This document shows positions 1 through 30,122 of a stretch of DNA of 31,398 nt, piece after piece. The notes below the pieces were generated by a model, which worked only from the letters and a program-made list of their open reading frames with translations, searched no databases and had not been told where the DNA came from. A program made the position numbers and the translations under genes. Origin of the DNA: Candidatus Omnitrophota bacterium (GTDB lineage Bacteria; Ratteibacteria; UBA8468; MWAK01); NCBI GenBank assembly GCA_043797665.1, contig JAZDPL010000048.1, positions 1 to 31,398 on the forward strand, in the 5' to 3' direction. Within the stretch, counting starts at the first letter, position 1. Each line of letters opens with the position of its first letter.

Positions 1-1457
1 ATCGGTTTATAGTCCTCGCCTTCGCGTTGGTAGATTTCCCTAACCGCTTTTTCCAGTTCTCTCTTTTTCTCTTCTGACAAAGGGTCTGGATGATGACTCT
101 TCAGTATCCGGCGTGCCTTTTCTACGGCACAGGTTCTTAAGTCTTTACCGCCGGAAGATTCCCAGGAATTACGGGAATTACGGCTAAGGATATCAACAAA
201 GTGCAACTCCTCCCGGAAATATTTGAGGGTATGCCGGTGACCAAGGTAATTCCCGCCCGGGCCGGTTTCGCGAATTACATCCAGGGCTAATTTATCGTCG
301 GTTACTTCAATACCCTGGAGTATTCTCTGAATATAGCCGGCGATTTCGTTGTCAATCACCACCTGTTCGTAGTTAGCAGTCTTGGCAAAGTCAATCAGTC
401 CGCCGAACAGGGCAATTTCATCGGCACCCGCCAGGGCGGGAAGAAGGGAGGTCATCATCTTCTCAATGCCGGTCTGCTGGTCGGGAATTTTTGAGTCGGT
501 GGGACCGCAGACAATATTGCTGGGAATTTCGTAATACTTTGCAATCTGAGCGGCAGCCGCACCGATTAAAGCGCCTTCCGGGCAACCAAAAACATGGGTA
601 CCAACCTTCATATCCATCATTCCCGGCCAGACCCAGTAAATACCCGGAGCACCCAGGCTAACCAATTGATGAAGAACCAGAACGCTGAGTATCTCTGCGT
701 TCATCTGGATTAGAGTACCGGCCAGCGTTACCGGGTTCATAGAGCCAGGGAATGGCATCGGACCATATTCTACGGGAATTTTGGATTTACCGGCCTCAAT
801 AAAGACCCAGACATTCTCACCCCAGGTAAGAGCACTATGGGGACAGGCGGTCATGGTGTAGGTCTTCTTTTTAGCAGATTCGTCTTTGCCACCAAGAACG
901 GCCTCAACCAGATGAATGATATCTTTTGTGGTTTTTTCATCAAGTCCGTCGCCGGCCGGTGTTACCTTTCCGTTATTCTTTACCAAGGCTTCAAAATAAC
1001 GCGCATGAAAAACATTTTTTGGGACATCCTGTGCCCAGATCATACCGTTTCCGATCGGAAGATTTTCCATGGCGTCAGAAAGCCGTGCGAAGTCTACAAT
1101 GTCTTTCTCTAACGCCTTCCGATAGTTTCCATCTAGGTCTAGGACAAACGGCGTAGTAGAACCGGTGCCAAGATAAGCCTTTCCTTCACCCAACCTGACC
1201 GGTTTGTGTTTAGGGTCCAGGGGATAGCGGGTAAATCCCGGAGGAACCGAGCGGATACATTTCTCTACCAACTCCGGCGGGAAATAGACGGTACCGTTCT
1301 TGTCAGATTTAAGACCACAGTCAGAGAATATTTCCTGCGCCTTTTTACAAAGAAACCTTACGCCGGTATTCTCCAGAATCTCCAGGGTTCCCAGATGTAT
1401 TCGCCGAATCTCTTCCTCGCTTAATACTCTTAACGCCGGGGACAGGTCTAATTTCAT
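1..1457 (-). CDS. Trimethylamine methyltransferase (MttB superfamily) protein, non-pyrrolysine, 3'-partial (>=485 aa)
   Basis: Translated by hand; it is absent from the ORF track because no stop lies in the window. ATG at 1457 follows AAAAGGAG and the frame is open to the window edge. Sequence includes MKLDLSPALRVLSEEEIRRIHLGTLEILENTGV, GSMNPVTLAGTLIQMNAEILS, DSKIPDQQTGIEKMMTSLLPALAGAD and LALDVIRETGPGGNYLGHRHTLKYFR, all typical MttB-family motifs. Confidence 0.92.
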   Translation of the reverse strand, partial: MKLDLSPALRVLSEEEIRRIHLGTLEILENTGVRFLCKKAQEIFSDCGLKSDKNGTVYFPPELVEKCIRSVPPGFTRYPLDPKHKPVRLGEGKAYLGTGSTTPFVLDLDGNYRKALEKDIVDFARLSDAMENLPIGNGMIWAQDVPKNVFHARYFEALVKNNGKVTPAGDGLDEKTTKDIIHLVEAVLGGKDESAKKKTYTMTACPHSALTWGENVWVFIEAGKSKIPVEYGPMPFPGSMNPVTLAGTLIQMNAEILSVLVLHQLVSLGAPGIYWVWPGMMDMKVGTHVFGCPEGALIGAAAAQIAKYYEIPSNIVCGPTDSKIPDQQTGIEKMMTSLLPALAGADEIALFGGLIDFAKTANYEQVVIDNEIAGYIQRILQGIEVTDDKLALDVIRETGPGGNYLGHRHTLKYFREELHFVDILSRNSRNSWESSGGKDLRTCAVEKARRILKSHHPDPLSEEKKRELEKAVREIYQREGEDYKP

Positions 1458-1484
1458 AGCCACTCCTTTTCAATATAGGGGCTG

Positions 1485-2702
1485 TCAGCCCCTTAGATTC
1501 TTAACCGCCTTTTTTATAGATGATATCAGGTAATCAGACTGGATATCGGTCAGCGCCGGTGTAAAAGGCAGGTTGATTAGTCTGCTATAGAACCTTTCGG
1601 CTATCGGACAGAGTCCCTTTTTATAGCCCATCTCTTTATAGATGGTAAAGTAATAGACCGGTGGATAGAGGGGAACTGTCCTGATGCTGTATTTATTATG
1701 AAGAGTTTCAATCAGACTGTCTCTGTTTCCTGTGAAGAGCACCGGATAGAGATGGTAGACATGTTGACTGCCGGGGGATTCGGAAGGAAGTTGCAATTCC
1801 TCAATGTCTCTTAGCCCTTCGGTCAACTTTTTTGCCACTACTCTTCGGCGTTCATTAAGAGAATCCAACTTTCTCAACTGAACCCTTCCCACGGCCGCCT
1901 GAATTTCGTTCATACAGAAATTGTAAGGTATCCGACCCCTTACCTTTGCGATGTCATAGAGATAGGGTATCCAGAACCTCTTCTGTTTTTCGTACTTTAC
2001 CATACCCACATGGCGCAGGGCAGGAATATCTTCGGCTGCCCGGTCATCATTGGTCGTAATCATGCCGCCTTCTCCCAGGGTAGTGATATTCTTCGCGGTG
2101 TGAAAACTGAAACAACCAAATCTACCAAACCCCCCCACTTTCTTTCCTTGATACTCTGCTCCCGGGGTATGGGCACAGTCTTCAACTACCGCAAGGTTGT
2201 ACTTCTTTGCCAGTTTCAAAATCGGCTCCATATCCGCGGGAAGTCCGTAAATATGGACTACATAAATCGCCCTGGTTTTAGGTGTAATCTTTCCTTCAAT
2301 TGTTTCTGAGGTGAGGTTATAAGTAGCGGGGTCAATATCCGCAAATACTACCTTTCCACCGAGTCTCAAAATGCCTAAGGTGGTAGAGAAAAAGGTAATC
2401 GCAGGAACAATAACCTCGTCTCCCTCTTTTATGCCGATAAGATAAGCCGCCATCTCAAGAGCGCTCGCCGCATTGGTTACCGCAAAGGCATACTTGGTGC
2501 CGATATACTCCGCAAATTCTTCCTGAAATCTTTTGGTATAGGAACTGAGAGTATAGATAGGTGCCTGCATCGCTTCTACCACTGCCTGTACCTCTTCCAG
2601 ACCATACATCGCACAGACCTCCGGATAATCCACCTTCAGTCCGGCCTCCGGAACACCTGTTCCGCTCCAATCTTCCATCTTTTTTCTTTTACTTTTTTCC
2701 AT
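1485..2702 (-). CDS. DegT/DnrJ/EryC1/StrS-family PLP-dependent sugar aminotransferase
   Basis: Motifs VVHIYG, VVEDCAH and FSFHTAKNITTLGEGGMITTND (PLP Lys). Start moved to ATG 2702, which has CAGGAGGAG upstream and overlaps the GH2 stop. Confidence 0.92.
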   Translation of the reverse strand: MEKSKRKKMEDWSGTGVPEAGLKVDYPEVCAMYGLEEVQAVVEAMQAPIYTLSSYTKRFQEEFAEYIGTKYAFAVTNAASALEMAAYLIGIKEGDEVIVPAITFFSTTLGILRLGGKVVFADIDPATYNLTSETIEGKITPKTRAIYVVHIYGLPADMEPILKLAKKYNLAVVEDCAHTPGAEYQGKKVGGFGRFGCFSFHTAKNITTLGEGGMITTNDDRAAEDIPALRHVGMVKYEKQKRFWIPYLYDIAKVRGRIPYNFCMNEIQAAVGRVQLRKLDSLNERRRVVAKKLTEGLRDIEELQLPSESPGSQHVYHLYPVLFTGNRDSLIETLHNKYSIRTVPLYPPVYYFTIYKEMGYKKGLCPIAERFYSRLINLPFTPALTDIQSDYLISSIKKAVKNLRG

Positions 2703-5262
2703 TTTCTCCTCCTGATAGAACGAAATCACCGCCTTTTACTCCTTTAATCTTTTTCATATTACGGGGAACAAGTAAAGTATCAGTAGTGGTTATAAGATAC
2801 CCTTCCGGGTCAGTAAAGGTAAGACGGATAAGACCCGGCTCACCCTTCTTAAGGGCTTCTTGCATCTTTTTGCTTAAGGCTATCTTTATTATCCTGGCTT
2901 TGAGGGGTGGAATATCAAACTTTGCCTCTTTCCATTCCGAGGTCGTTCCCAGATTAGCGGCGCCGCAGGATTCCTGAACGAAAGTTTTTCCTTCGGAAAG
3001 ATTGGTAAAACTGAAAAGGTTCCTGACCTTGACGGGTGCATTCTTTACCTCTGAGATAGTGTGGAGTCGTTGCTCCACCTGTATGGGAGCAAAAATACTC
3101 CTTACAATCCAGTAAAAAGGAAGTGGGACAAGATAGGGAGTAACAATTCCCCAGGGAAGCCCTTCGTCGTAACTGGTCCACTGATAAGGCTTACCAACCG
3201 CCGGGTCCTTAAAGTGAAAGAATGCTCCACCCAGGCTTGCCGGGTCCTGCTCCATATAGGACCACTCCCGCTGGAGCCTTTTCTTAAATACTGACCAGGT
3301 ATCATGTTTCTGAAATCGTTCCTCCGGCCTCTCTTCCTCAATCAAGGAGAGATAAGGCGCTTCCAGGAGTTCCGGAACCGTACCGAAACAGAAGTATTCC
3401 GAAGAGAACCATATTCCTTTCCAACCCCTTTGCTTTAGGTCTTCCGGAGTACAGGACTTTTTCTTTTCCCAGGTGGTATAAATTGTTATCTTACCTTTTT
3501 TCTTCCACTCTTTTATAGGCAAAAAGGTATAGTGAATATCCGCAACATCTCCTATGCCTGCCTGCAGATAGGCCGGGAATGTGGTTAACGGTCCGGGCGG
3601 AGGAAACATAGTAAACCGGTCCGGGGCAAGCATCTTTGCCCATTGGTGGAAAATCCGACTGTGCCTCCAGAAGGATACCTCTTCTCCCTGATTCCACAAA
3701 GGGGTATCGGCTTTCCTGGGTCTGGGGAGGTTCTCATTTCCAATTGACCAGACAAGGACTGAGGGGTCATTGATGTCCCTCTGAATTGCCGCCTGGATGC
3801 GGTGCAAGAATATCGGCAGATTATCAACCTCAGATATTAAATCCGGAGACCAGTCAATCGGAATCTCCTGCACGAGATAGAGGCCCATTCTATCGCAAAG
3901 TTCTACAAAACGGTGGGTAGGGTTGAGGTGGGTCCGGACGCCATTGATGTTGGCACGCTTAATCATAAATATTTCCTGTTTCAGCCATTCTTCGTCTTGA
4001 GATAGACCCTTTTCCGGATGGAACTCCAAGCGATTAATGCCCCGAATTTTAATGGCCTGGCCGTTGAGCAGGGGTCGTCCATTCTCTACCTCAAACCGGC
4101 GAAAACCCACGCTTTCCGAAACACTCTCCTCTTTTTTCCCTTCGGCAAAAAGACGCAGAAAGATTTGGTAAAGGCAGGGCTTCTCGGCAGACCAGGGAAT
4201 AACTCCGGGGACTTCAAAGGAGAATTCCTGATTAGACACACCGCTTTTTTCAATCGTTACTTCGGGTAATTCCCGCAAAAAAATGGAGTTTGGACCATCA
4301 CAAATCTCAACCTTTATTTTGCCGCACACCCTTTTTTCTCTTTTGTTTATCAGCCTGACCGCTCCGCTCAAAATTCCCTGCTTGTTTTTCTTATCCCAGG
4401 CGGAGGTAAGCCGGCAGTTGAGAATCCGGAATAAAGGTACTTGATGGATGTAGATAGGCCGGTGGATTCCACAGAAATCCATTACCCAGCGTGGCATATC
4501 AAGCCTGACAAAAGGATGTTTCCGGTAGATTCTGATAGCAATCAGGCTTTCCCCCTGACTGCAGAAAGGGGTGACATCAAACTCCCGGCTGGTCAATCCG
4601 CTCCATACCTCACCAGACTTCTTCCCGTTAATCCAGATTTTGCCACCCGGGTAGATACCGTCAACCCTTAAAATGGCGTCCTTTCCTTTGGAAGGAGAGA
4701 AAGTAAACCAACGCCGCAAGAAAAATCCGTCTTCCGGGTCAATATGGCTCAGCGTAATTTCGTCCCGCATCTTGTTAGGACTGTCAAATGGAGAACGTAA
4801 GTAAACCGGTCCTGGTACTTCTACCTCTTTCCATTGTCTGTCAGGGAACTCTTTCCGGAGGCATTCTTCTTCCGAAAAGGGCCATTTCTGGTACCGCCAC
4901 TTACCGTAAAGAGAGACAGAATTCTTGGGTTCTGATAGATTTTCATCTATATCTACCGGAGTAAGAATTGCCGGCAGATAGGGATGAAGTGGGCAATTTT
5001 TGATAGCCTTACCTCTGACATCCGCTTTGAACCTCAGGTAGAAGGAAGAGATAGAACCCTCAAGGAATTCTAAAAGGTTAAACTCAAACTCCGCCCAACC
5101 GTCCTTACCGGTAAAATCCTCTTTGCGAATAAGGTTTCCTTGTTCCGAAACTATCTCCAGGACTATCTTTTGCCCGCTCTCTTTGAGTATTTCTTCTCCC
5201 TGAAAGACCCCGGCTCTTACTTCTCCTCTTTCCGCCACCAGATACTTCAAATTCAGATTCAT
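2689..5262 (-). CDS. Glycoside hydrolase family 2 (beta-galactosidase/glucuronidase-like), no signal peptide
   Basis: Sugar-binding, Ig-like and TIM-barrel layout. Motifs PWSAEKPCLY, VGFRRFEVENG..LLNGQAIKIRGINR, WSIGNE (acid/base) and SSEY (likely nucleophile). RBS AAGGAG. Confidence 0.9.
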   Translation of the reverse strand: MNLNLKYLVAERGEVRAGVFQGEEILKESGQKIVLEIVSEQGNLIRKEDFTGKDGWAEFEFNLLEFLEGSISSFYLRFKADVRGKAIKNCPLHPYLPAILTPVDIDENLSEPKNSVSLYGKWRYQKWPFSEEECLRKEFPDRQWKEVEVPGPVYLRSPFDSPNKMRDEITLSHIDPEDGFFLRRWFTFSPSKGKDAILRVDGIYPGGKIWINGKKSGEVWSGLTSREFDVTPFCSQGESLIAIRIYRKHPFVRLDMPRWVMDFCGIHRPIYIHQVPLFRILNCRLTSAWDKKNKQGILSGAVRLINKREKRVCGKIKVEICDGPNSIFLRELPEVTIEKSGVSNQEFSFEVPGVIPWSAEKPCLYQIFLRLFAEGKKEESVSESVGFRRFEVENGRPLLNGQAIKIRGINRLEFHPEKGLSQDEEWLKQEIFMIKRANINGVRTHLNPTHRFVELCDRMGLYLVQEIPIDWSPDLISEVDNLPIFLHRIQAAIQRDINDPSVLVWSIGNENLPRPRKADTPLWNQGEEVSFWRHSRIFHQWAKMLAPDRFTMFPPPGPLTTFPAYLQAGIGDVADIHYTFLPIKEWKKKGKITIYTTWEKKKSCTPEDLKQRGWKGIWFSSEYFCFGTVPELLEAPYLSLIEEERPEERFQKHDTWSVFKKRLQREWSYMEQDPASLGGAFFHFKDPAVGKPYQWTSYDEGLPWGIVTPYLVPLPFYWIVRSIFAPIQVEQRLHTISEVKNAPVKVRNLFSFTNLSEGKTFVQESCGAANLGTTSEWKEAKFDIPPLKARIIKIALSKKMQEALKKGEPGLIRLTFTDPEGYLITTTDTLLVPRNMKKIKGVKGGDFVLSGGENGKK

Positions 5263-5278: not shown

Positions 5279-6460
5279 TCACTCAGACTTGAGATTTCCC
5301 TGTAGTCCGTCCTCTACCAGTTTTAAATAAACGTCACTGGGGGGCGGACATCCCGGGCAGAAAGGAATCTTCCCCTGGTATCTTTTCAGGCAATTCCCGA
5401 GGGCAATCTCATCGCCGGTAAGTCTTGCCTTTGCCCTGGCTCCAATCAATATCTTTATGCTCCGGACAGATTTTCCCACTACTTCTTTCCGGAGGTACCC
5501 GTGGAGGTAAGAAGCCAGTCCGGCCACACAGTTACTGCAGGGATTGCCCGCTACCACCTTTATCTCTTTATAAGGAGAGATGCCTTCAATAGTAAGAGGC
5601 GGTTTTTCAAAACTCTCCGGTGTCACCTCTTCCAGCCTTTCGCCTGACACCTCAATATCCCCGGGGTCAATCTTTCCCAGTCCCTGTTCTCCGGCTAATT
5701 TAATATGCTTCACCTCTTCTGGATTAAGCCTCATTATCCGGCAACAGGTGCTGTCTACCGCTACCGGATCTTTTCCGGCTATCAGTATGCCCAGGTCTTT
5801 CGGTCTTCCCGGTTTAAAAGGACCAATTCCCTCTAAACCAATAAGCCCTTCCACAATGGCTAAATCAGGTTTAAAAACTTTATTCAGGTCAACCAGACAC
5901 TGATTCACATCCAGGAGATGGAAAGCCAGCCTATCCTGGTCGCGGGCAACGATTCCTTTCATATTCTTTAGCGATAGACTGGCGACCGTTTCGCAATGGG
6001 TCTTTAACTTAGCCACACTGATGATGAAATCACATCCTAAAATTTCTTCAGCAACTACCACTTTTTTCAATTTCTTTCCCGGAATTTTAACCTCAGTCGT
6101 TCGGCCACTCTTAAAATCGTAGAGCGGCAGACGTAACTCTTCAAATACTCTTTTTGCGCCACACTTCTCAAAGGCATCCTGGCTTGATACTCCCCAGCCC
6201 ACTCCTTCTCCTACGATAAAATTGAAGCCCGGATTCTGAATTAGTTTGATTAAATGAGTTAATAAGTCCAGATTAACGGTTATCCCGGTGTCCCACCTTT
6301 CACCACACATCAGATTTGGTTTGATGAGAATCCTCCTGGTGGCCGGAGGGATAATCTTTTTTAAGCCACCCAACATTTCCAGGAGGGCATCCAGACCGTT
6401 TGCAACCGTTTCTTTTTTGTAGTTTTCTACCCTGACTATCGCTACCCTTGATTTTTCCAT
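5279..6460 (-). CDS. DUF362 domain protein with Cys-rich C-terminal Fe-S-like domain
   Basis: DUF362-type motifs ILIKPNL, KLKTH..T..SLSLKNMKG, LEGIGP..G and DPVAVDS. C-terminus carries CSNC...GNC...CPGCPP. TGATG overlap with the upstream gene at 6460. Confidence 0.85.
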   Translation of the reverse strand: MEKSRVAIVRVENYKKETVANGLDALLEMLGGLKKIIPPATRRILIKPNLMCGERWDTGITVNLDLLTHLIKLIQNPGFNFIVGEGVGWGVSSQDAFEKCGAKRVFEELRLPLYDFKSGRTTEVKIPGKKLKKVVVAEEILGCDFIISVAKLKTHCETVASLSLKNMKGIVARDQDRLAFHLLDVNQCLVDLNKVFKPDLAIVEGLIGLEGIGPFKPGRPKDLGILIAGKDPVAVDSTCCRIMRLNPEEVKHIKLAGEQGLGKIDPGDIEVSGERLEEVTPESFEKPPLTIEGISPYKEIKVVAGNPCSNCVAGLASYLHGYLRKEVVGKSVRSIKILIGARAKARLTGDEIALGNCLKRYQGKIPFCPGCPPPSDVYLKLVEDGLQGNLKSE

Positions 6461-7785
6461 CAGACCTTAACTACCTTGACCTTTAACATTTCACACACAT
6501 TCTCTATTTCTTCAACCACATTCAGGTGAATAAGAGAAAAGTGGTGTTCAAACCCCTGGTAAATGATGGCATCCACTAAACTTGTTATCCGGGGGAATTT
6601 GACCCTGGTTGATGTTCCGGTAAAGATTGCTTTGCCGGGAATTGCTTCTCCGGAGGCAAGAAGCATCTTGTATTCCGTATCCTCGGATAATCTGGCAAGG
6701 GTAACCTCTCCTTCTTTACATCCAAAATTACACCCCAGGCCAAAAGAACAGGGGATATGAAGAATGCTAACTTCCTCCGGGTTACGGGCAAGAGAGATGG
6801 CCGCATTTCCACAGTGCCAGAATGTCCCGATATCCTCGTTCTTATCTACCGAAACCAGGTCGGCCAAAAAAGGGGGTCTGCCGGTAAGAAAATACTGGAT
6901 AAGCATGGTGAGGGTACCGTAGATATCGCCCTCACACCCGATCGGCAGTCCTTCATCGGTAAGTTTTGAAATTACCACACAAGGATTCATCCCGAAAATC
7001 TTACCCGCCTCAGGCCAGCACTTTATCGCCAGACCATCCAGATGATACCTTTCCGCCAGAAGGTTCAAGGCGCAGTACATCTTTCCATAGGTGGAGAGGT
7101 CTTTCTCCTTCATCGCATTCCTGGAAATAACTCCTTTCAGTTCCTTTACCCTCTTCTCTATTTCTCTGCCGGAGACCTCTTCCATCCTTTCCCTTACCTC
7201 TGCTAAATCAATGTGACGGATTTCCGTGCCTATTTCTCTTTTCAATTTCAGTTCGTCAAAAGCGAGGTTATAAAAACCCGGCACATGGTAGCCAACCAGA
7301 CCGATTTTTGTACTTCTGAGTTTTTTGACCACCCCCACTGACTTCAGAAACCTACCAAGAACCGATAAAATCTTGTCATCTTTATAGGAACCGTAGAAAA
7401 ACTTGTAATCTTTCTTTAGTTTATAAAGGAGAGAGGTCACCATATTTGCCCCGCAGAAGGAATTCAGGAGCAAATTCCCATCTCCTTTGGGTTCTGGCAA
7501 TGCCCAGACAATAAAAGGGAGATTAAAATTCTCAACCAGATTAACAACCCTTTCTCCGTTAGGAAAGGTACCGGTCTGAATAAGAATACAGTCAACCTCT
7601 TCCTTTTTAAACCTTTTAATGGCTGAATCCAAATCTCTCTGGTTTAGAATTATCCCTTCCGGACTAATCAGCCTGCCTTCAAGTTTAGCAAGTTTTTCTT
7701 TACTTTTAGTAAAGATTTCCTTCGCTAAATTAAAGTTGAAATCCTCACCTGCAAGGGTCACCAGACCAAATTTTATCGGTTCCAT
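6460..7785 (-). CDS. L-fucose/L-arabinose isomerase-family protein (FucI/AraA-like)
   Basis: Motifs LAIKCWPE, GCEGDIYG, FWHCG and GFEHHFSL. TAATG overlap at 7785. Confidence 0.88.
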   Translation of the reverse strand: MEPIKFGLVTLAGEDFNFNLAKEIFTKSKEKLAKLEGRLISPEGIILNQRDLDSAIKRFKKEEVDCILIQTGTFPNGERVVNLVENFNLPFIVWALPEPKGDGNLLLNSFCGANMVTSLLYKLKKDYKFFYGSYKDDKILSVLGRFLKSVGVVKKLRSTKIGLVGYHVPGFYNLAFDELKLKREIGTEIRHIDLAEVRERMEEVSGREIEKRVKELKGVISRNAMKEKDLSTYGKMYCALNLLAERYHLDGLAIKCWPEAGKIFGMNPCVVISKLTDEGLPIGCEGDIYGTLTMLIQYFLTGRPPFLADLVSVDKNEDIGTFWHCGNAAISLARNPEEVSILHIPCSFGLGCNFGCKEGEVTLARLSEDTEYKMLLASGEAIPGKAIFTGTSTRVKFPRITSLVDAIIYQGFEHHFSLIHLNVVEEIENVCEMLKVKVVKV

Positions 7786-9233
7786 TAATTTTCCAGTTCT
7801 TCCTTCGCCTTTTGGTAAATTCTCTCCAATTCCCGGTTCTTCTCAGGCTTAAGAATGAAATTATGGTTCTTAATCTTTTCCTTGATCAACTCTTTAACGC
7901 GTTTCTTTTGATTTTCACCCCGGCCGGAATACTGCTGGAACATTGCCCGGCTAAAAACCTTTGGCATCCAGTAAGCCTTCCGGAAATTTTTGAGCGTCTC
8001 TTCTGAAGAAAGGTACGAACCATCGCCTAAAACTGCTTCCTTGCAAGACCTGATATCTCCTTCTCCATACTCAAAACCTTCTACCAGCCTCATAACATTT
8101 TCCAGGATTTCACAGTCATAGATTGCCTGTTCCGGCGAAAAAATCTCATCAAGGGAAACCTGACCGATATCAGCCAGAATCATTGCCCCGGAAAGGACTC
8201 CGCAGAGGGCCGAGGAGAATTTCTCTGTGCCTGACTGAACGCCTGTTTCTTTCGCCATGGTATTCATCTGGCAGATATGCGCATTGCCATAAAACCTGTT
8301 TATCTCAGCGATAAACATTTCTGATAAGCAATCTTCCGGAGTGCCATAAGCCAAACTTGCCTCCTTCATATCAAAGGCATGGAGTCTTACTTTAAAACCA
8401 ACCAGACTCCCATTACTCAACAGTTTTAGAATCGTATAACCACCCAACACTTCAGCCAGGGACTGAACAACTGCTTCGGGAAAGGTAATCGGTGCGGTGG
8501 CGCCCAGCATCGGCCAGGTAGATACCGCAATCGGCACTTTCCGGTCAATAAAATGCATAATCTTGTCAAAATCATTGCCCTCCATCCTTAAAGGACTAAT
8601 TACATACATATTGGTGATAAAAGGCTTGCCCATCACTTGAGCCATCTCATAAATATACTCTGAGGCTCTGATGTCTCCGGAAGGAGCAATTAACCCTCCA
8701 TGCCTTGAGTACTGACAACTTATCTTATATCTGGCAATTGGTTGTAAGAATGGCGGCAGGTCCTGAGGGTCACCAGGAGCCGCTGCCTTAATTGATGTTT
8801 CCAGAGAAAGGGTATCCATAAATCTGGTCATCTCAATGACGTCGTTGGTATTAAGGGACCGGACCTTTTCTGTTGCCGGGTCAAGGAGCCAACTGGCATG
8901 GTTACACATCAAGAACGTTGGCCGGTAAGGATACGGAAGACCTTTTTCCGGAAGCCTCATTATATGGTCGGTATCCACATTCTCTATCCTTGACCAGAAG
9001 CCTATGCATTTTTTATCCTTTTTGTACTCTTCAACCTTCTCTTTTACAAAATCTGCTTTAAGATAAACTCTGTTATTTTTAATTTTTATTTCGTCAAAAG
9101 AAGAAATCCGTTCCAGCGCCTCTTTGTTTGATACTTTCATTCCATAAGTCTCAAGAACCTCCAGCGCCAATCTCTCTATTCTGCTGATTTCTCCTTGTTC
9201 AAGCAACGCCTGCATCCTCAACGTTTTCTTCAT
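7785..9233 (-). CDS. Divergent MttB-superfamily methyltransferase, non-pyrrolysine
   Basis: Motifs ALEVLETYGM, ISPLR, PMLGATAPITFPEAVVQSLAEVLGG, FDMK...YGTPE, QSGTEK, FSPEQAIYDCEI and YLSSEETLKNFR. Confidence 0.85.
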   Translation of the reverse strand: MKKTLRMQALLEQGEISRIERLALEVLETYGMKVSNKEALERISSFDEIKIKNNRVYLKADFVKEKVEEYKKDKKCIGFWSRIENVDTDHIMRLPEKGLPYPYRPTFLMCNHASWLLDPATEKVRSLNTNDVIEMTRFMDTLSLETSIKAAAPGDPQDLPPFLQPIARYKISCQYSRHGGLIAPSGDIRASEYIYEMAQVMGKPFITNMYVISPLRMEGNDFDKIMHFIDRKVPIAVSTWPMLGATAPITFPEAVVQSLAEVLGGYTILKLLSNGSLVGFKVRLHAFDMKEASLAYGTPEDCLSEMFIAEINRFYGNAHICQMNTMAKETGVQSGTEKFSSALCGVLSGAMILADIGQVSLDEIFSPEQAIYDCEILENVMRLVEGFEYGEGDIRSCKEAVLGDGSYLSSEETLKNFRKAYWMPKVFSRAMFQQYSGRGENQKKRVKELIKEKIKNHNFILKPEKNRELERIYQKAKEELEN

Positions 9234-10317: not shown

Positions 10318-10357
10318 AATGGTTTCTATCAGAACGCCAATTAGGAATTTTAGCCAG

Positions 10358-19336: not shown

Positions 19337-19357
19337 ATTTTTACTTATTGTAGTTAT

Positions 19358-20617: not shown

Positions 20618-20650
20618 AAGGTAAATTGAAAATTGAAAAAAAGAGCGAAG

Positions 20651-21416: not shown

Positions 21417-22025
21417 ATGGTTAATAAAAAAAGCTTCACCCTCATTGAATTGCTGGTCGTTATTGCTATCATCGCAATACTGGCGGCGATGTTGCTGCCT
21501 GCGTTAAGCCAGGCAAGGGAAAAAGCCAGGCAGATAAGTTGCATGAACAACCTAAAGCAAATGGCGTTGTGCTGGTTGATGTACGCACAGGATGAAAATG
21601 ACTGGCTGTACCCCGCCGGCTATGGCTGGGACGGTTCCCGTTGGTGTGACTCCGTCGCACCGATACAAAGGTACATTTCCAACCGGAAAATCCAGGTCTG
21701 CCCAACCAAATCCAGTTCAGACCTTGGCTATAAAGTAAGTTACGGCGCAAACCTCTACTGCATGGGAATGGGCTGGCCGGACGCATTTTGGAATGCTTAC
21801 CTCAAGAAAATTACCGGAATTGAAAAACCGTCCTCGGCGATAATGCTCATAGACACCGGAGGCAGCCCCTTTCAGATTTATCAGGGTACCTATGTCCAGT
21901 ATCCTCATGGCAACGGCGCCAATATGAACTTTGTGGATGGTCACGTGGAATGGATGACGTTGAACCAGATGAAAGAGAAAAACCTGATAAATGCTTCAGA
22001 TTTGCTTACCTGCGACCAGTTCTAA
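21417..22025 (+). CDS. Prepilin-type N-terminal cleavage/methylation protein with DUF1559 and H-X9-DG domain
   Basis: [45 protein letters not shown], then CPT, SYGAN and [28 protein letters not shown]. Confidence 0.93.
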
Positions 22026-22034: not shown

Positions 22035-23183
22035 ATGGAAATAACCGGCAGGCAAAAGATAGAAGCGGTTCTTTCCGGAGATGGAACTCCAGAAATAGGG
22101 GTGGTGATCTGTTACGAGGATATTTTCATCCGGGACCACTGGAAGGAACTCACCAGTCTTCCCTGGTGGTTCCGGGAATCCCCGGAAATAGAAGAACAGT
22201 TACCCTGGCGCCGCGAGATTATCTCCCGGGTTAACCAAGATTGGTTTTTCGTACCTTTCTTCCATACCCGCGCGGAACGGCAAAACCTATCCCTTGAGAT
22301 TTTACCTGAAGGCGTCTTCCTTATTGATAAGCGCACCGGAAGGAAAAATGAGTTACGGGAACCGGTACCTGGCGGATGGAGGTTCCCCGGAGGAATACAA
22401 TCATTCCATCCTCCAAAACTCGCCGATTCCCCGGCGGAAATAGACGAGGCAATTCCCTTTCCGGACGAATTTAACGGCGGGAAACACCCTCCGGAAGGCG
22501 CGGATGACCTTGCGAAACGGCTTCAGGCGGAATTCGGAAAAAAACTCTTTCCGGTATCCCATGTCCCTTCTCCTTTCCGGTCACTTTACAACATCTGGGG
22601 TTTTGAGGGAACGATGAGAATGGTGGCGGAAAAACCGGAATTGGTTAAATATGCAGGTGAACGTTTTCTCTCTTTGTCTCTGAATACGGTCGGTGAGACC
22701 GCAGCGCTGGGTGCGGCCGGAGTCTGGATAGAGGAATGGATGACAGACATGATAAGCCCGGATTCGTTCGCCTCTCTCAATCTTCCCCTGATGAGGCAGC
22801 TGGTAGAGGAAATACGTTCGGCAGGAATGAAATCTATTTATTATTTCTGCGGAAATCCTGCGGGAAAATGGGAGCAGATTCTTTCTATTGGAGCCGACGC
22901 CCTTGCTTTTGAAGAAAGCAAAAAGGGGTTCACCATCAACATTGAAAACGTTGCAGAGAAAGTAAACGGGCACTGCGCTCTGCTTGGCAATCTTGACGCC
23001 ATCGGCATCCTCCAGAACGGAACCGATGAGGAACTAAAAAAGGAGATCAGACGCCAGATAGCCGCCGGCCGAAAAAATAAAAACCGTTTTATTCTCAGTC
23101 TGGGAAGCCCGGTCACGCCGCATACGCCGATCAACAGGGTTCACCTGTATTGCGAACTCGGCCGGCAACTTGGCAAAAATTGA
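22035..23183 (+). CDS. URO-D/MtaA-superfamily protein
   Basis: Motifs WGFEGTM, GVWIEEW..DMISP, IYYFCG, LLGNLDA..IL..GT.EEL..EIRRQI and FILSLGSPVTPHTP. Confidence 0.8.
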   Translation: MEITGRQKIEAVLSGDGTPEIGVVICYEDIFIRDHWKELTSLPWWFRESPEIEEQLPWRREIISRVNQDWFFVPFFHTRAERQNLSLEILPEGVFLIDKRTGRKNELREPVPGGWRFPGGIQSFHPPKLADSPAEIDEAIPFPDEFNGGKHPPEGADDLAKRLQAEFGKKLFPVSHVPSPFRSLYNIWGFEGTMRMVAEKPELVKYAGERFLSLSLNTVGETAALGAAGVWIEEWMTDMISPDSFASLNLPLMRQLVEEIRSAGMKSIYYFCGNPAGKWEQILSIGADALAFEESKKGFTINIENVAEKVNGHCALLGNLDAIGILQNGTDEELKKEIRRQIAAGRKNKNRFILSLGSPVTPHTPINRVHLYCELGRQLGKN

Positions 23184-23205: not shown

Positions 23206-24495
23206 ATGGAAAACAGGAAAAAACTCATTTCTGCGGAAAAAAGAGATATTCCGGTTGCTGGTGAAACCGATGTGCTTGTTGTAGGCGGGGGGCCTGCGGG
23301 TATATCCGCCGCGGTTTCTGCGGCAAGAAACGGAGTAAACACGCTTATTGTTGAGCAGTTTAACTGTTTAGGAGGCGCGGCAACTGCGGGTCTTGTCGGA
23401 CCTTTTATGCGGACAACCGGAGAAAACGGCGGAATATACAGGGAGTTTCTCGGCCGCTTGGCAAAGGAAGGAGGCGCCGAAGGATACGCTTTTGAATCTG
23501 AAACGTTCAAATACGCGGCGCAGGAAATGGCGATTGAGTCGGGCGTTAAAATTCTTTTTTACACGTTTGCAGAAGGCGTCATTGTGGAGGACAACAGGTT
23601 GAAAGGAGTTTTCGTCGCGAATAAGAACGGCAGACAGGCTCTTCTCGCAAAAGTCATAATTGACGCGACAGGAGACGGGGATATCGCTTATTTTGCCGGG
23701 TGCAATTATGAAAAGGGCGATTCGAACGGAGAAATGCAGGGGTCGTCTATGATGTTCAGGTTAGGCGGAATAGACGGTTCAAGAGTTCCGGGAGAGGATT
23801 TTGTGCGGGAAAAAATCCGCGATGCGAGGGAAAAAGGGGAACTCCATTTGCCGGATTACGTTTACTGGATGCTTGGATGCAAAGGAAGCACAATACGCAA
23901 TGGACAGGTCAGTGTTAATGTTGATACTTCAACGGATATTGACGGCACTGAAACCGGACAGTTGACCGAGGCTACGATTAAATCACGCCGGCTGATTCAG
24001 GAATGTCTTCACTTTTATCATAAGTATGTGCCCGGATACGAAAACTGTCATTTGATTGATACCGCGTATCTTTACGGAATAAGAGAGACGAGAAGAATAC
24101 TCGGCGAATATTACCTTACTTACGAAGACGTGAGGAACGGAAGGAAATTTGATGACGGAATTGCGCGTGCATCGTTTTTTATTGATATTCACTGCGCGGA
24201 AATGTTCAGGGACGGGGCTGGCTGGAAGGAAAAATACCCTGTTCCTGAAGAGGGATACGAAATTCCGTACCGGTCGCTTGTGCCGCGGGAAACCGACAAC
24301 CTTCTTGTTGCGGGCCGGTGTATTTCATCCGACAGGAAGGCAAACGCTTCCCTTAGAATAATTCCTACGTGCATGGCCATGGGACAGGCCGCAGGACTTG
24401 CCGCCGTGTTTTCCGTAAAAGAGAACAAAAAACCCGGAGAAGTTGACGGTTCGTTCCTGCGGAAAACACTGATAAGCCAGGGAGCGGATATTTGA
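23206..24495 (+). CDS. FAD-dependent oxidoreductase (FAD_oxidored family)
   Basis: Motifs DVLVVGGGPAGISAAVSAARNG, IIDATGDGDIA, GIRETRRILGEY, YEIPYRSLVP..NLLVAGRCIS and CMAMGQAAG. Confidence 0.92.
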   Translation: MENRKKLISAEKRDIPVAGETDVLVVGGGPAGISAAVSAARNGVNTLIVEQFNCLGGAATAGLVGPFMRTTGENGGIYREFLGRLAKEGGAEGYAFESETFKYAAQEMAIESGVKILFYTFAEGVIVEDNRLKGVFVANKNGRQALLAKVIIDATGDGDIAYFAGCNYEKGDSNGEMQGSSMMFRLGGIDGSRVPGEDFVREKIRDAREKGELHLPDYVYWMLGCKGSTIRNGQVSVNVDTSTDIDGTETGQLTEATIKSRRLIQECLHFYHKYVPGYENCHLIDTAYLYGIRETRRILGEYYLTYEDVRNGRKFDDGIARASFFIDIHCAEMFRDGAGWKEKYPVPEEGYEIPYRSLVPRETDNLLVAGRCISSDRKANASLRIIPTCMAMGQAAGLAAVFSVKENKKPGEVDGSFLRKTLISQGADI

Positions 24496-24546
24496 TAGTG
24501 CTTTTCTTTGGAATTAAAATCCGGCCAAAATACGGAGGCGGTCTTT

Positions 24547-26484
24547 ATGAAAAAACTATTGTTCTTCCTTTTTTTCGCAGTTCTTTTTTATCCGGCTTTC
24601 CCGGAAAAAATTTTGAATGCCGAAAATATGAAAAAAGATGAGTTCTATCCGGTAATGGCGTTCGCCGTCAACTGGAAAAACAACGATGATTTGAGAAAAA
24701 TATTTGATGATCTGGAAAAACATAACGTGAACACAATTATCTTCGGACTGACAGAAGAAGAAATGTCCGACACCCAGCGGTTCCAGACGCTTGCGTCCCT
24801 GGCTGATAAATATGGAATCAAACTTATGCCGGAGATTCACGCCATTTCCCATACGATAGACAAGGTTGAGAAAAACCCGGAAATGGGCCTGCGAACACTT
24901 TCCGGAGAGTTTTCCACGGTGATGTTCCCCAGCGGCTACCGAAAAGGTTCCTATTACCCGACCCTTTTCCATCCGGAAGTGAGAAAAATTGCCGGAGCGC
25001 ACCTGACAAATACATTAAAATTATTTCAGGGACACTCGTCCTTTCTGGCGGTTAACCTGGACGATGAACCCGGCTTGAGTTTCATCGGAGAGAAGGTTGA
25101 TTTCCAGGGTGACTATAGCAAGACTTCCGTAATGGAATTCAAGAAAGAAACCGGGCTTGACCCGCCGCGGCTGACGTCTGAAGAAGTAAAGAAAAGATAC
25201 CCGCCCGGTCTAATAATATCCGACCAGGACCCCTGGCTGAAATGGAACCTCTTCCGACTTGAAACCTTCCGGAATTTTTATCAGTACCTGGAAGACCGCG
25301 GTAATAAAATAGACCCGGACGTTCCTCTAACCACCCAGGTCAACGCCGGTGTGGTAGCTGCCTACGGTATGTACTGGCGGGAGACATACGCTCCTTTCGG
25401 CGTGGTCAACTTCCACGCTTACCCTTACCGTGAGCCGCAGACGTTCACTTCCTACGCCTATGACCTGGCTCAGACTGCTTCCTGGAGCAAAAAACCGCTC
25501 TGGCTGACGGTGCAGGCATTTGACCCATGGGGTACGGTGGTTACGCCGGCGATGCTGCGGCTCCAAGTCTGGCAGGGCATTGCCGGCGGCGCCCGCGGTA
25601 TCGGCTTCTTCCTTTACAATGCCCTGGCCGAATCCGGTGATAAGTGGATAATTTACAACGCACCGGAAACCTGGACGGACGCCGGACGTATTTTCCAAAA
25701 CATAAAAGTACTGGCTCCCCGCCTGAATGCAATGAAGCGCTCCAGTCGCCAGATAGCCCTTCTTCAGTCGGTTACCACGGAAATTGTTCAGGGTTACTGG
25801 ATCGAAAGCGCAATAGAATGCTGGCGTCAATGGCACAGCAACGAACAAGCCTACTCCGCTCTGGACCGAACCCATATCCCGTTTGAGATGATAACCGAAG
25901 ACGATGTTCTGGAAGGGAAAATTAATAACTATAAAGCCCTGATTCTGGTAAATGTGGAAAACCTGCGCCAGAGTGCCGCCGCGGCTATTGAAAACTACAT
26001 CAAGCAGGGCGGGCTGGTCTATGCCGACGACACAACCAGAGTTAACCTTAAAGGAGTCAACAAACTCGGTTTCCCGGTCAATCAGATGTATGAAGATTTC
26101 CGGAAAAAACCCGGGCCAACCGCCCGCGACCGGAGAATCTATTATCCGATTATTGACAAACAGGCGGTGGAATTTGAAAAAATCTTTGCCCACATAATAC
26201 CCTACGTCTCCTGTGATTCCCGCGATATCATTCTGCGCACTCTGGAGGGCAAAGAAGGTAAACTTCTCTTCGTCATCAACAATTCCCTGCTCTGGCCCTA
26301 CGGCGAGCAAAAAGAAACTGGACGAACCATAACCACCAGAGTTAAGATAACAGATAAGGTGGGGGTAACGGATGTAATTTCCGGAAAAAAACCGGCTGAT
26401 TTGAAGAACGCCGGAACGGAGACGTTCTTTTCGGTTTCCGTCTTACCCGGGGACGCCGCCGTCTTCCTGCTTCAAAAAAGATGA
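24547..26484 (+). CDS. Predicted secreted GH42-like protein (TIM barrel plus beta-galactosidase trimerisation-like domain)
   Basis: ATG 24547 follows GGAGG and opens the signal peptide MKKLLFFLFFAVLFYPA. Motifs NLDDEPG, FHAYP, GARGIGFFLY, IPFEMITEDD..YKALIL and YIKQGGLVYAD. Confidence 0.7.
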   Translation: MKKLLFFLFFAVLFYPAFPEKILNAENMKKDEFYPVMAFAVNWKNNDDLRKIFDDLEKHNVNTIIFGLTEEEMSDTQRFQTLASLADKYGIKLMPEIHAISHTIDKVEKNPEMGLRTLSGEFSTVMFPSGYRKGSYYPTLFHPEVRKIAGAHLTNTLKLFQGHSSFLAVNLDDEPGLSFIGEKVDFQGDYSKTSVMEFKKETGLDPPRLTSEEVKKRYPPGLIISDQDPWLKWNLFRLETFRNFYQYLEDRGNKIDPDVPLTTQVNAGVVAAYGMYWRETYAPFGVVNFHAYPYREPQTFTSYAYDLAQTASWSKKPLWLTVQAFDPWGTVVTPAMLRLQVWQGIAGGARGIGFFLYNALAESGDKWIIYNAPETWTDAGRIFQNIKVLAPRLNAMKRSSRQIALLQSVTTEIVQGYWIESAIECWRQWHSNEQAYSALDRTHIPFEMITEDDVLEGKINNYKALILVNVENLRQSAAAAIENYIKQGGLVYADDTTRVNLKGVNKLGFPVNQMYEDFRKKPGPTARDRRIYYPIIDKQAVEFEKIFAHIIPYVSCDSRDIILRTLEGKEGKLLFVINNSLLWPYGEQKETGRTITTRVKITDKVGVTDVISGKKPADLKNAGTETFFSVSVLPGDAAVFLLQKR

Positions 26485-29400
26485 AGCGAATACTTCTCCT
26501 TTTTTGCCTGCTGATCTTCGCAGGCAACCGGAACCTTTTTGCCATAAGCGACTCCCTGCCGGGCAGCGCCTGGCTCGATGCTTCCGGAAAATATGCCACC
26601 GGTACGCAAAGAATTATTTCCATTCAAAATGATTATCTCACCGTAAATCAATGGGTAGGAGCAACAAACGGTTACCTCACCCAGATTGAGATTCTGGAAA
26701 ATTCCTCCGGCCGCATCATCTTCTCAACCGACTTTCTCCAGGAATGGTCTTTGAACGAAAACAAACTCGGTTACTATGCCATACCGGCCGGCGGTTTGCC
26801 GGAAGCTGTCCCGCGTTACGAAAACATAGCCAATCGCGGAGGGATCTTCTTCTGGGACTGGAATACCGGTCAGTGGCTGGTCTGGAGCAATAAAACCAAC
26901 CAACCGGACCCGGATAAAACGGTCTCCTTCCCTGCCGGCATGCCTGATTTTAAAACAAACGCATTTAAGGAAAGTTTCCGCTGGAAATACGTCCTGCAGG
27001 AAAATTTCACCGCAAGAACCGAGATTATTCTGGAGATGAAAAAGGGTGTCCCAGCGGTAAAGGTGACCGTCCTCCCTGATTTCTGCTTCGACTTCAACAT
27101 CAAAGCAAAACTGAAATTTCCCTCTTCGGAAGTTGAATCGGCCGAGGTTAACCTCGGAGCCGATAAACCGCGGGTTTTCTTCCTGCCTTCTTCGGAAAAC
27201 TCCTTCCCGGAAGCATTCTTTTTCTACCTGGAACCTTCATCTTTTGCCAGCCAGAAGATAACCGGCGCAAAAGATTCTTTCCAGATGCATTTTGGGGATA
27301 CCGGTAATTCTCCGGCTCAATCCAAAAAAATTATCTTTTACGTGGGCCTGGCCGAAAACGATTACGGAAAGATTTCCACGGTTGAAAAAGCGATAGAACC
27401 ATTAAGAAAAATGGAGGTTATCAGTCTGATATCCCAGGGAGAGCGTATAGTTTTCAACCAAGGGGAAGAAATCACCTGGACGCTGTCCTTCCCGAAAGAA
27501 TTTGCCGGGGAGATCCTTAATCTGGAACTCGGCGGAAAGGAAAAAGTTCTTCTTTCCGAAACAAAAACCCTGCCGGAAAATAAAGACAGGGTAAGTTTTC
27601 TGCTGCCAACCCGGTTCCTTGCCCCTGGCCGTTACAGGATATCGGCCATCCTGAAATCGAAGACCGGGGAATCCGCAACGGCAAGCCACTGGTTTTCTCT
27701 TGCCCCGGAATCTGACCCGGGAACATTTCCGGTCCAGACCTGGTTCCACGGGACTCCGATGGGCCTGGAGACTTTCCGGAAACTAAGTACCGTTTTTAAC
27801 CGGTTTCTGGTCTTTTCGGACCAGTTGCCTGGATATGTGGATACCGCGGCTCTGCAGAATTCAAAAATCTGCGTCGGTCTGACCCCGGCTCAACCCTCCT
27901 GGTGGGAAAGTTCACCGAATAGTCAGGAACTAAGAAACGGCGCGGCAAGGCACAGCCGGTTGATATCCGAAAGATTTTCGGACTTTCCGGCGGTTGATAT
28001 GGTGGATATTTACAGCGAAAAAGGAAACAGGCCGGCAAAGGACGCCGATACTCTGGAAAGGATGCACCGGGAAATCGGGCTTAAAGAATTCCCTGTTTTG
28101 AACTGGCAAAAGGGCATCATTCCGGACAGCGACCCCTACCTCCGATATTGTCTGTGGTGGGACAAAGAAGGCGGAGTACCGAACTTTCTGGGTTTCGTGG
28201 CCACGGCCATCAAAGAGTCTGTCCCGCAAATATCCGCCGGACATTCTGAGGGGTTTATGGCTGCAGCCGGAAACTATCTTTATGCGCCGGGACTCTGGGA
28301 AAGGCTGGATTTCCTTTTCAAGTGGACCTATACTCTTCCGGACCCGAAATTGATTGCATTCGCTTCCGAATGCCTGCGAAGCGCTGCTCGAAAAGACCAG
28401 CGGGTCTGTTCCAACATTCAACTTTTGTGGAAAAAGGACTGGATTGAACCCGGCCGCCATTACACCATCAACGCCGACATTCTCAGGGAAACCACCTGGC
28501 TTTCGATGGGCCGGGGTGTTGACATCCTTTCCTATTGGCCGCATTTTTTTCTCACCAAGGGTTCAGAGTTCAAGGAACAGGGCGTTGAAACCGTAACGTG
28601 CCCGGAGGAACTCTGGGAGGAAATGAAAAGTTTGAAGCAAGACCTGTTCCTGCCTTACGGGTACTTTTGCTCACAGATGAAAAGGCCGCTGACTTCAACC
28701 GGACTCCTCTATTCTGTGACTGAAGAAATAGGGAGCGGCTGGAAACATCAGGAAGATGCGGCTGAATTGTGGTACCAGCTCGCCCAGGCGCATATACCCA
28801 CGGAAATCGTATACGAGGAAAACATAATCCAAGGCGACCTTTCCCGGTATCAGACGCTGGTTCTTCCCAAAATTACTTATATGCGCGAAAGCGTTCTGGA
28901 AACCCTCAAGAAGTTCGCGGACGGCGGCGGGATCATCCTGACGGAAACCGAACTGCCTTTTTTGCCGCAGACAAAAAAAATCCCCCAATTTGAGGGGTCC
29001 GGCGACCAATTGCTGAAGAAATTTTTTGAACCGGGGTTTTCCGTGAAACCAGACGACGTTAAAAACTGGCAAACCACCCCGAATATAAACCTGTCCGCGG
29101 AAGACGGCAAAATAAAACTAACGGAAAACGACACGGTCGGCTACGGCGCGGCGTATTTTTCCGTAAGCGCGGACCTGACGCAATACCCGGTTCTTAAGAT
29201 TTCCGTCCTTAAATCAGAAGGAAAATGGTCCTTGCAGGTTGAGGATTTTGGCGCGTTAGCCCCGGAAACGGACGCAACCGGGGTCTTCACCTATGACCTT
29301 GGCTCGCTTACCGGTTGGAAGGGCAAGAAGAATTTCAAATTGTACATTTATGAAGCAGGTAGAGGAAAATCACTCTGGATAGAATCACTGGAGATTGGCC

Positions 29401-30122
29401 GGATTACCGCCACGCCCGAAGTAATGGAACAGAAAGCGAAGGAATCGGCCCGGCAGCAGAAAATCGCTTTTTTCCGCGGGGAATTCCTGAAGACGGACGG
29501 AACTGCCCCCTTCGCCGATACGGAAAACCCGGAAGTGGTTTTAACCCAGATGGAAAGAGGTCAGGCAAAATACGTTTTACTGGTAAACGACCAAAGGACT
29601 TTTGGAAACTGGGTCGGACAGTTTAAAAACTACAGGGAAAAAGGCGTTGATCAGGAAATAACCCTGAAGGTAAATGAAAAAAACTTTTTTGCATATGACC
29701 TTCAGAAACATCAAAAACTGAATTTTCAACCGGGGGACCGCCTGAAAATAGACCTGCCGGCCGGCGGAGGGAAAATCCTGGCTTTTTACCCCCGGGAAAT
29801 TGCATCAGTCAAACTCAAGATTCCAGGCGAATGCCACACCGGAACAATGCTGAAGTTCGGCGTGGAAGTTAACGACAAAGAGCAGAAAAAAATAGCCGGA
29901 ATTCAACCCCTTTCGCTTACTCTGACCAAAGCAAACGGCGAAACGGCAACCCTTTACCGGACCGCCGGAGAAGGTTTTTATGAAGGTGAAATTGTCGTTG
30001 CCGACAATGAACCCTGCGGAAAATGGAAAATGTCGGCAACAGAACTTGGTTCCGGCGTCAAAACCGCGGCTGAATTCAACGTGATGCAGGATGAGATAAA
30101 GACATCCTTCAACTGGAGATGA
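26481..30122 (+). CDS. Large predicted secreted multidomain GH42-like protein with CBM-like insert and C-terminal Ig-like domain
   Basis: Signal peptide MKRILLLFCLLIFAG and ATGA overlap with the upstream gene. Motifs WTYTLPDP, GRGVDILSYW, IPTEIVYEE..YQTLVLP..FADGGGIIL and NEPCGKWKMSATELGSG. Confidence 0.65.
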   Translation: MKRILLLFCLLIFAGNRNLFAISDSLPGSAWLDASGKYATGTQRIISIQNDYLTVNQWVGATNGYLTQIEILENSSGRIIFSTDFLQEWSLNENKLGYYAIPAGGLPEAVPRYENIANRGGIFFWDWNTGQWLVWSNKTNQPDPDKTVSFPAGMPDFKTNAFKESFRWKYVLQENFTARTEIILEMKKGVPAVKVTVLPDFCFDFNIKAKLKFPSSEVESAEVNLGADKPRVFFLPSSENSFPEAFFFYLEPSSFASQKITGAKDSFQMHFGDTGNSPAQSKKIIFYVGLAENDYGKISTVEKAIEPLRKMEVISLISQGERIVFNQGEEITWTLSFPKEFAGEILNLELGGKEKVLLSETKTLPENKDRVSFLLPTRFLAPGRYRISAILKSKTGESATASHWFSLAPESDPGTFPVQTWFHGTPMGLETFRKLSTVFNRFLVFSDQLPGYVDTAALQNSKICVGLTPAQPSWWESSPNSQELRNGAARHSRLISERFSDFPAVDMVDIYSEKGNRPAKDADTLERMHREIGLKEFPVLNWQKGIIPDSDPYLRYCLWWDKEGGVPNFLGFVATAIKESVPQISAGHSEGFMAAAGNYLYAPGLWERLDFLFKWTYTLPDPKLIAFASECLRSAARKDQRVCSNIQLLWKKDWIEPGRHYTINADILRETTWLSMGRGVDILSYWPHFFLTKGSEFKEQGVETVTCPEELWEEMKSLKQDLFLPYGYFCSQMKRPLTSTGLLYSVTEEIGSGWKHQEDAAELWYQLAQAHIPTEIVYEENIIQGDLSRYQTLVLPKITYMRESVLETLKKFADGGGIILTETELPFLPQTKKIPQFEGSGDQLLKKFFEPGFSVKPDDVKNWQTTPNINLSAEDGKIKLTENDTVGYGAAYFSVSADLTQYPVLKISVLKSEGKWSLQVEDFGALAPETDATGVFTYDLGSLTGWKGKKNFKLYIYEAGRGKSLWIESLEIGRITATPEVMEQKAKESARQQKIAFFRGEFLKTDGTAPFADTENPEVVLTQMERGQAKYVLLVNDQRTFGNWVGQFKNYREKGVDQEITLKVNEKNFFAYDLQKHQKLNFQPGDRLKIDLPAGGGKILAFYPREIASVKLKIPGECHTGTMLKFGVEVNDKEQKKIAGIQPLSLTLTKANGETATLYRTAGEGFYEGEIVVADNEPCGKWKMSATELGSGVKTAAEFNVMQDEIKTSFNWR

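Follow-up and report, generated by a model that had tools for sequence, protein, structure and literature searches.

Could a pilin be the device by which a bacterium captures sugar polymers? This question is raised by contig JAZDPL010000048.1 (C76 in our numbering) of a Candidatus Omnitrophota bacterium (assembly GCA_043797665.1; 2.69 Mb, 93 contigs, 86% complete), analysed here in full (31,398 nucleotides, "the window"), which carries two prepilin genes of the DUF1559/H-X9-DG family among genes for sugar breakdown. No function has been assigned to the very large DUF1559 family, and the passage of polysaccharides through the outer membrane of PVC-group (Planctomycetes–Verrucomicrobia–Chlamydiae) and related bacteria is unsettled. 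The window is filled by two divergent gene blocks, 13 genes on the minus strand (3-19378) and eight on the plus strand (19607-31224), with intergenic gaps of at most 31 bp except for 228 bp between the arms and one gap of 100 bp. Both arms are repressor-led operons for sugar polymer breakdown and contain one pilin gene apiece, a locus design that modifies the scheme of known polysaccharide utilisation loci.

The left arm encodes, in order, a ROK repressor, the pilin, a protein with a carbohydrate-binding module (CBM4), a GATase1-like protein, a weak GH66-like protein, DUF5696, a URO-D-like protein, MttB, an isomerase, DUF362, GH2, DegT and a second MttB. The order in the right arm is repressor, isomerase-like protein, pilin, URO-D-like protein, FAD oxidoreductase, two GH42-like proteins and M29 peptidase, the last gene lying beyond the point where the earlier annotation ended. 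That annotation, made from the sequence alone and called here the original prediction, was right in placing a sugar-type repressor at the head of each arm (ROK on the left, GntR with Peripla_BP_3 on the right), the pilin directly after the ROK gene or one gene after the right regulator, and a URO-D family gene in each arm. It also expected secreted CBM/glycosidase genes straight after the pilin, which is the case on the left, whereas on the right the URO-D and FAD oxidoreductase genes precede the GH42-like ones. Nor is the left arm a pure glycan locus, as it adds two MttB methyltransferases, a DegT aminotransferase and a DUF362 protein. Sugar regulator and glycosidases are co-located in the window, as in a CAZyme gene cluster. 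As predicted, no transporter family matches any of the 21 window proteins, and no window gene is among the 97 genes of the genome for proteins with at least five predicted membrane helices. The transporter-free window is weak evidence alone because the whole genome has few importers; moreover, the left operon, cut off by the contig end with its 3′ side open at base 3, might continue to a transporter.

That pilins go together with sugar regulators and with glycosidase/CBM genes is a real and strongly non-random pattern. Gene calling on the genome gave 2286 genes, among which a profile search found 60 DUF1559-class pilins, and a TIGR04294 search added at least two more. We tallied by hand the genes at positions −1, +1 and +2 of the pilins outside the window, pooling the positions. 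Glycoside hydrolase (GH), CBM or lectin families make up 70/160 of these neighbours versus 2/100 controls (Fisher p 7e-16) and sugar-type regulators 18/160 versus 1/100 (Fisher p 0.001), a comparison weakened by the controls being shorter than the pilin neighbours and by the exclusion of multi-pass proteins from them. For the controls, 799 genes of the loci examined were eligible, of which 150 were picked at random and 100 used; the remaining neighbours comprise six URO-D, one SSF, one DUF6785, six other DUF-only and 29 other genes and 29 without a match. Viewed from the regulators, 15 of the 32 LacI-type genes have a pilin gene next to them (background 0.052) and 23 have one within three genes (0.137); 25/60 pilins have a LacI-type or ROK gene immediately upstream on the same strand. 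Signal peptides were predicted heuristically in 32/58 genes at +1 of pilins versus 0.152 genome-wide, and 20 of the 45 URO-D-like genes have a pilin at most five genes away (background 0.208, p 3e-4). Enrichment of pilins beside CAZymes and regulators had been set beforehand as a test of the original prediction, and it is strong in these counts, which put numbers on the link of DUF1559 pilins to sugar operons.

The comparison set consisted of 40 sampled relatives from one class with genome sizes of 1.0-2.7 Mb, and PF07596 is present in 41/41 genomes of the class. At 20 pilin loci of seven relatives, which were taken from the top of the PF07596 match list and, being kin, are not independent, a GH, CBM or lectin gene occurs at +1 or +2 in 15 loci (20/40 genes), a regulator stands upstream in 11, and a protein with at least nine helices occurs in none. 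Tandem arrays of three to four DUF1559 pilins were seen at four loci of relatives, two of the arrays behind one regulator.

Both window pilins belong to the DUF1559/SBP_bac_10 family (PF07596) with the N_methyl domain (PF07963) and H-X9-DG (TIGR04294), a family expanded in this genome to at least 60 copies. They exceed the gathering scores for PF07596 and PF07963, and the H-x9-DG-H motif is visible in both translations; for TIGR04294, the left pilin scores 27.3 bits, over the cut-off, and the right one is absent among the 32 matches listed at E 0.001. They have the class III signal peptide, phenylalanine 1, glutamate 5 and long N-terminal helix of type IV pilins. Over 120 homologues the first 30 residues including glutamate 5 are invariant or nearly so, and the cysteines and the H..DG-H motif are conserved. 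The model of the right pilin (mean predicted local distance difference test score, pLDDT, 84.8) consists of a 51-residue helix (4-54), which matches solved pilins, and a small alpha/beta head. In a wide fold search its top 23 matches are all pilins or pseudopilins, the best being PilA4 (Z 6.0, root-mean-square deviation 3.6, 117 residues aligned). The head of the left pilin found only itself at E 1e-12 among 49 candidates in a word-limited search that missed even its paralogue on contig C79; by direct comparison these two pilins are mutual best heads (0.51 vs a mean near 0.08). Pilin domains also occur at the C-terminal end of two long frames, C8:31840-33723 (627 residues, with a LacI-type regulator in front) and C65:29409 (648 residues), which are either fusions or read-through artefacts.

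The machinery for handling such pilins is encoded elsewhere in the genome. One PilD, 12 T2SSE ATPases (four of the PilT family) and four secretins were detected, so that the prepilin peptidase, the secretins and the assembly and retraction ATPases presupposed by the original prediction were all found. Together with LptF/G and MlaE, the secretins point to a two-membrane envelope. A locus on contig C21 (16515-26567) combines two secretins, a PDZ protein, GspE and GspF, and is the first candidate for the machine of the dispersed pilins; no prepilin-motif gene was found on that contig. The four PilT-family retraction ATPases lie on contigs C82, C75, C17 and C62, three of them away from secretin loci.

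Sugar importers are few. No TonB-dependent receptor (PF00593) was found in the 86% complete genome, such receptors exceeding the cut-off in 8/41 genomes of the class with one to three copies each, and OprB was not found in the genome. The importer counts are six ATP-binding cassette (ABC) permease domains, three MFS proteins, one SSF protein and one SBP_bac_1 protein; an ABC permease pair on contig C77 lies with PhoU and a phosphate-binding protein. PTS, TRAP and MFS_2 families gave no match among 71 further proteins with at least six helices, seven of which are without any match. Depletion of multi-pass proteins near pilins was considered and not seen (11/76 within three genes, background 0.137). 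An SSF gene stands at +2 of a pilin, and all four DUF6785-like genes lie at most five genes from one, two of them beside an FtsX/M28 giant: at C63:11579-19944 the gene for a 1458-residue FtsX/peptidase-M28 membrane protein has a DUF6785-like OPT-type gene on either side, and this group lies upstream of a pilin by a few genes, in housekeeping surroundings. The model of the DUF6785 protein C79_58 (pLDDT 89.3), encoded outside the window, matches the barley OPT/YSL transporter YS1 (PDB 7wsr; template modelling score 0.65, E 1.7e-7, 12% identity), while the next matches score at most 0.16; DUF6785 has no sequence match in PDB. DUF6785 occurs in 19/21 genomes, and it is not an obligatory partner of pilins because only 6/20 of its loci in relatives contain one; going by the modelled fold, it is a candidate for a shared importer. 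One copy stands in a conserved run without pilins at five loci of relatives (homologues of C7_5-7, C72_16 and C86_37). The claim that the pilin occupies the slot of substrate capture has therefore to be narrowed: it cannot replace inner-membrane uptake, since SSF and DUF6785 genes occur in other pilin loci.

Our preferred, though tentative, reading (probability roughly 0.4) is that a retractile filament carrying the operon-specific pilin catches the sugar polymer. A sugar inducer would lift the repressor of the operon; the pilin would be cleaved by PilD, assembled by one of the four secretin machines and would join a shared retractable type IV filament. Its variable head would bind the glycan directly or via a small secreted CBM/LamG protein often encoded beside the pilin, and retraction would bring the polymer to periplasmic or surface glycosidases encoded in the same operon. 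The products would cross the inner membrane via a few shared importers: the OPT-fold DUF6785, the one SSF protein and one sugar ABC system. The genome is an unusually clean case for the question of polysaccharide passage: its pilins, no fewer than 60, are linked to sugar operons, its pilus toolkit is complete and includes four retraction motors, and the search for TonB-dependent receptors found none.

Several observations weigh against capture by the filament. In other phyla (78 loci, 43 with a same-strand +1 gene), a GH, polysaccharide lyase, CBM or lectin gene occurs at +1 in 10/43 scanned genes, mostly in Lentisphaeria and Phycisphaerae, and a LacI-type regulator in 14/78 pilin loci. The best Z of 6.0 falls in the range that the fold tool calls common, Foldseek gave no match for the right pilin model at E 0.001, and no lectin fold is among the matches to the pilin head. 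Some pilin loci carry inner-membrane importers (SSF, OPT-fold DUF6785) of their own, and other importers may be missing from an 86% complete genome. Head similarity correlates with neighbour homology when all 57 clean-motif pilins are taken (p 0.0002), but when the duplicates of four modules are dropped p rises to 0.058, 0.126 and 0.68 for the remaining 53 pilins, and we rejected head-follows-substrate as evidence of specificity; for instance, the neighbours of C49_4 and C85_29 match at 1145 bits, yet their heads rank 53 and 52. The "substrate-specific adaptor" of the original prediction thus found no support in the single test run, as the heads do not follow neighbour homology without the duplicated modules.

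Enzyme export is a close rival of capture, although we consider it unlikely. The pilin would here be a cargo-specific pseudopilin: incorporated into a shared type II secretion endopilus, it would serve to export or display the adjoining large glycosidases, and sugars would then enter via general pores and a few inner-membrane importers. It agrees with export that the gene at +1 usually encodes a signal-peptide protein, often longer than 700 residues, that GspD-, GspE-, GspF- and GspK-type genes are present in the genome, that the right pilin matches EpsG and PulG near the top of the fold search (Z 4.8 and 4.1), and that hypervariable heads suit protein partners as well as glycans. Against it, type II secretion does not require the four PilT retraction ATPases found, though they may serve other pili. 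Export also predicts heads that track the neighbouring enzyme families, which they do not, and the right pilin is followed by two genes of cytoplasmic type. The nearest published case, in the excerpts of PMC13274419 (2026) at hand, is the alginate-induced lyase cluster pgaptmp_000046-60 of Verruconatronum alginivorum, which includes a PulG-like pseudopilin for which the genome has 67 homologues; its authors attribute the pseudopilin to type II secretion and propose export of alginate lyase. Like the present operons, that cluster holds a pseudopilin of a large family among polysaccharide genes, a likeness drawn from its description as PulG-like. It differs in having an SSF symporter inside and a TonB system in the genome, and these excerpts do not describe the regulator–pilin–enzyme design (PMC13274419). 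That this pseudopilin occurs alongside a TonB system and has an SSF symporter next to it (PMC13274419) also counts against capture by filament, and it means that pilin and TonB uptake are not exclusive.

Two further readings are improbable, and about equally so. The protein could remain an unpolymerised single-pass inner-membrane protein, whose periplasmic head binds oligosaccharides or tethers enzymes like a solute-binding protein for the shared importers. This would explain the Pfam name SBP_bac_10 and the designation of DUF1559 proteins as solute-binding in the available part of PMC4807772, and it fits the single SBP_bac_1 protein found in the genome and the SSF and DUF6785 importers at +2 or +3 of three pilins; however, the near-invariance of the first 30 residues including glutamate 5 is what filament assembly predicts, and the fold is pilin-like with no solute-binding protein among the 50 matches listed. 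Alternatively, the pilins could serve only for adhesion to particles or cells or for surface variation, co-regulated with sugar genes and outside uptake, as the hypervariable heads (the left one having no relative besides itself among the 49 candidates), the tandem arrays in relatives and the often sugar-unrelated +1 genes of Verrucomicrobiota loci would allow, but general adhesion would not call for a separate pilin in each operon, controlled by a sugar regulator of its own, and no other outer-membrane sugar route was found in searches for TonB-dependent receptors and OprB.

Extended to the whole class, filament capture would mean that glycans are taken up without TonB-dependent receptors: interchangeable, sugar-induced pilins, dozens of them, would be mounted on a common retractile filament that pulls each polymer through a secretin, and OPT-fold DUF6785 proteins would carry out import across the inner membrane. 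We regard this generalisation as doubtful; if true, SusC/D and ABC binding proteins would be joined by a third way of capturing glycans, and a family that ranks among the largest unexplained ones in PVC-group bacteria would gain a function. In the SusC/SusD loci of Bacteroidota, a regulator is combined with secreted proteins that bind or cut the glycan and with cytoplasmic enzymes in one inducible unit per substrate. The present operons resemble them in this repeated composition, with the difference that no tandem TonB-dependent receptor/SusD pair is among the 21 window proteins and a pilin occupies the SusC/D place. As precedents for capture, pilus parts have been tied to glycan attachment or uptake in Akkermansia MUL2 (PMC13174399, in excerpt), and PilA of Caldicellulosiruptor bescii is xylan-induced and xylan-binding (10.1101/614800, in excerpt). 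According to these excerpts each of the two has one pilus locus per genome, whereas here dozens of variable pilins are distributed one per operon, apart from the machine. The accessible parts of papers naming DUF1559 assign it no function, and PMC11685898, in the portion available, mentions only up-regulation of type II secretion. The general regulator–pilin–enzyme design and DUF6785 were not found described in the literature outside subscription journals; PMC13274419 shows one instance of the design. The pilin–sugar operon design lends itself to direct testing in relatives that are in culture.

Table 1. Genes and signals of the window in order of position.
Feature	Position	Strand	Support and remarks
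MttB-family (trimethylamine-type) corrinoid methyltransferase, 3′ open	3..1463	-	PF06253 E 9e-89; TIGR02369 418 bits, below cut-off 525
DegT/DnrJ sugar aminotransferase family	1485..2729	-	PF01041 E 1e-107
GH2 glycosidase, no signal peptide seen	2689..5262	-	PF02836, PF00703, PF02837
DUF362 protein	5279..6460	-	PF04015 E 5e-46
L-fucose/L-arabinose isomerase-like enzyme	6460..7785	-	PF02952 E 4e-9; sulfoquinovose isomerase model 295 bits, below cut-off 700
Second, divergent MttB-family methyltransferase	7785..9233	-	PF06253 E 2e-42; solved trimethylamine/glycine betaine methyltransferases at E ~1e-19
URO-D/MtaA-fold protein	9235..10392	-	PF01208 E 1.5e-14; one of 45 in genome
DUF5696 protein with GH101-like barrel, no signal peptide seen	10358..12421	-	PF18952 E 2e-63; PF12905 E 7e-8
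Signal-peptide protein, weak GH66-like barrel	12453..14423	-	PF13199 E 7e-6; signal peptide by heuristic and by eye; 63% to paralogue C79_2
Signal-peptide protein, C-terminal GATase1-like domain	14366..16261	-	PF07090 E 9e-7; 63% to C79_1
Signal-peptide carbohydrate-binding-module protein, directly after pilin	16271..17308	-	CBM_4_9 E 2e-8
Left DUF1559/H-X9-DG prepilin	17324..18070	-	PF07596, PF07963; TIGR04294 over cut-off; 60% to C79_3
ROK repressor	18083..19378	-	PF00480 E 6e-56 and helix-turn-helix
Sigma-70-type promoter, left arm	19358..19386	-	11/12 consensus bases
Sigma-70-type promoter, right arm	19551..19594	+	12/12 consensus bases
Repressor, GntR helix-turn-helix and LacI-type sensor	19607..20617	+	PF00392, PF13377
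Sugar-phosphate isomerase-like TIM barrel	20633..21402	+	PF01261 E 2e-19
Right-arm DUF1559 prepilin, type IV pilin fold in the model	21417..22025	+	PF07596, PF07963; model pLDDT 84.8
URO-D/MtaA-fold protein	22035..23183	+	PF01208 E 6e-29; MtaA/CmuA models far below cut-off
FAD-dependent oxidoreductase	23206..24495	+	PF12831 E 1e-116
Signal-peptide GH42-like protein	24508..26484	+	PF02449 E 4e-5
1213-residue signal-peptide protein with GH42 trimerisation domain	26481..30122	+	PF08532 E 3e-7
M29 aminopeptidase, final gene of arm	30124..31224	+	PF02073 E 9e-27
10-pair hairpin past right arm	31266..31289		scored as terminator on - strand only

A methylated or amino sugar is the likely substrate of the left operon, as MttB, isomerase and aminotransferase genes share one arm. 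Both components of an MttB system are present, with PF06253 twice in the window, the MttB match being below the TIGR02369 equivalog cut-off, and a corrinoid protein on contig C8. Genome-wide, nine MttB and 45 URO-D-like genes stand against this one stand-alone corrinoid protein (211 residues, B12-binding), which the MttB enzymes would use to demethylate the sugar. Judging from its sequence, the GH2 glycosidase is likely cytoplasmic. The glycosidase assignment is weak for several genes (GH66 E 7e-6, GH42 E 4e-5). The left module is duplicated on contig C79, where three neighbours are 63-66% identical, DUF5696 31% and the pilin 60%, and the pilin takes a different position within the module. For the CBM protein just two further homologues were found, one of them in the same genome. 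DUF5696 was found in 2/40 relatives with 28-30% identity, adjoining a DegT gene, and no pilin lies inside those 4.4-kb loci.

The isomerase-like gene of the right arm ends prematurely; the C-terminal part to be expected lies in a second frame that is open to about 21402, at the ribosome-binding site of the pilin gene. The gene is apparently frameshifted near 21290, by a real lesion or an assembly error. The two sigma-70-type promoters between the arms are divergent and nearly perfect. The ROK gene likely has its true start near 19336, downstream of the left-arm promoter, and a 14-nt tandem repeat spans the −10 box of the right-arm promoter, where it is a likely operator. A search for a shared operator with a loose palindrome pattern gave 10 matches, of which just the two in the window adjoin a regulator. 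An imperfect 50-nt palindrome occupies 31326-31375 at the contig end and is possibly a dispersed repeat that interrupted the assembly.

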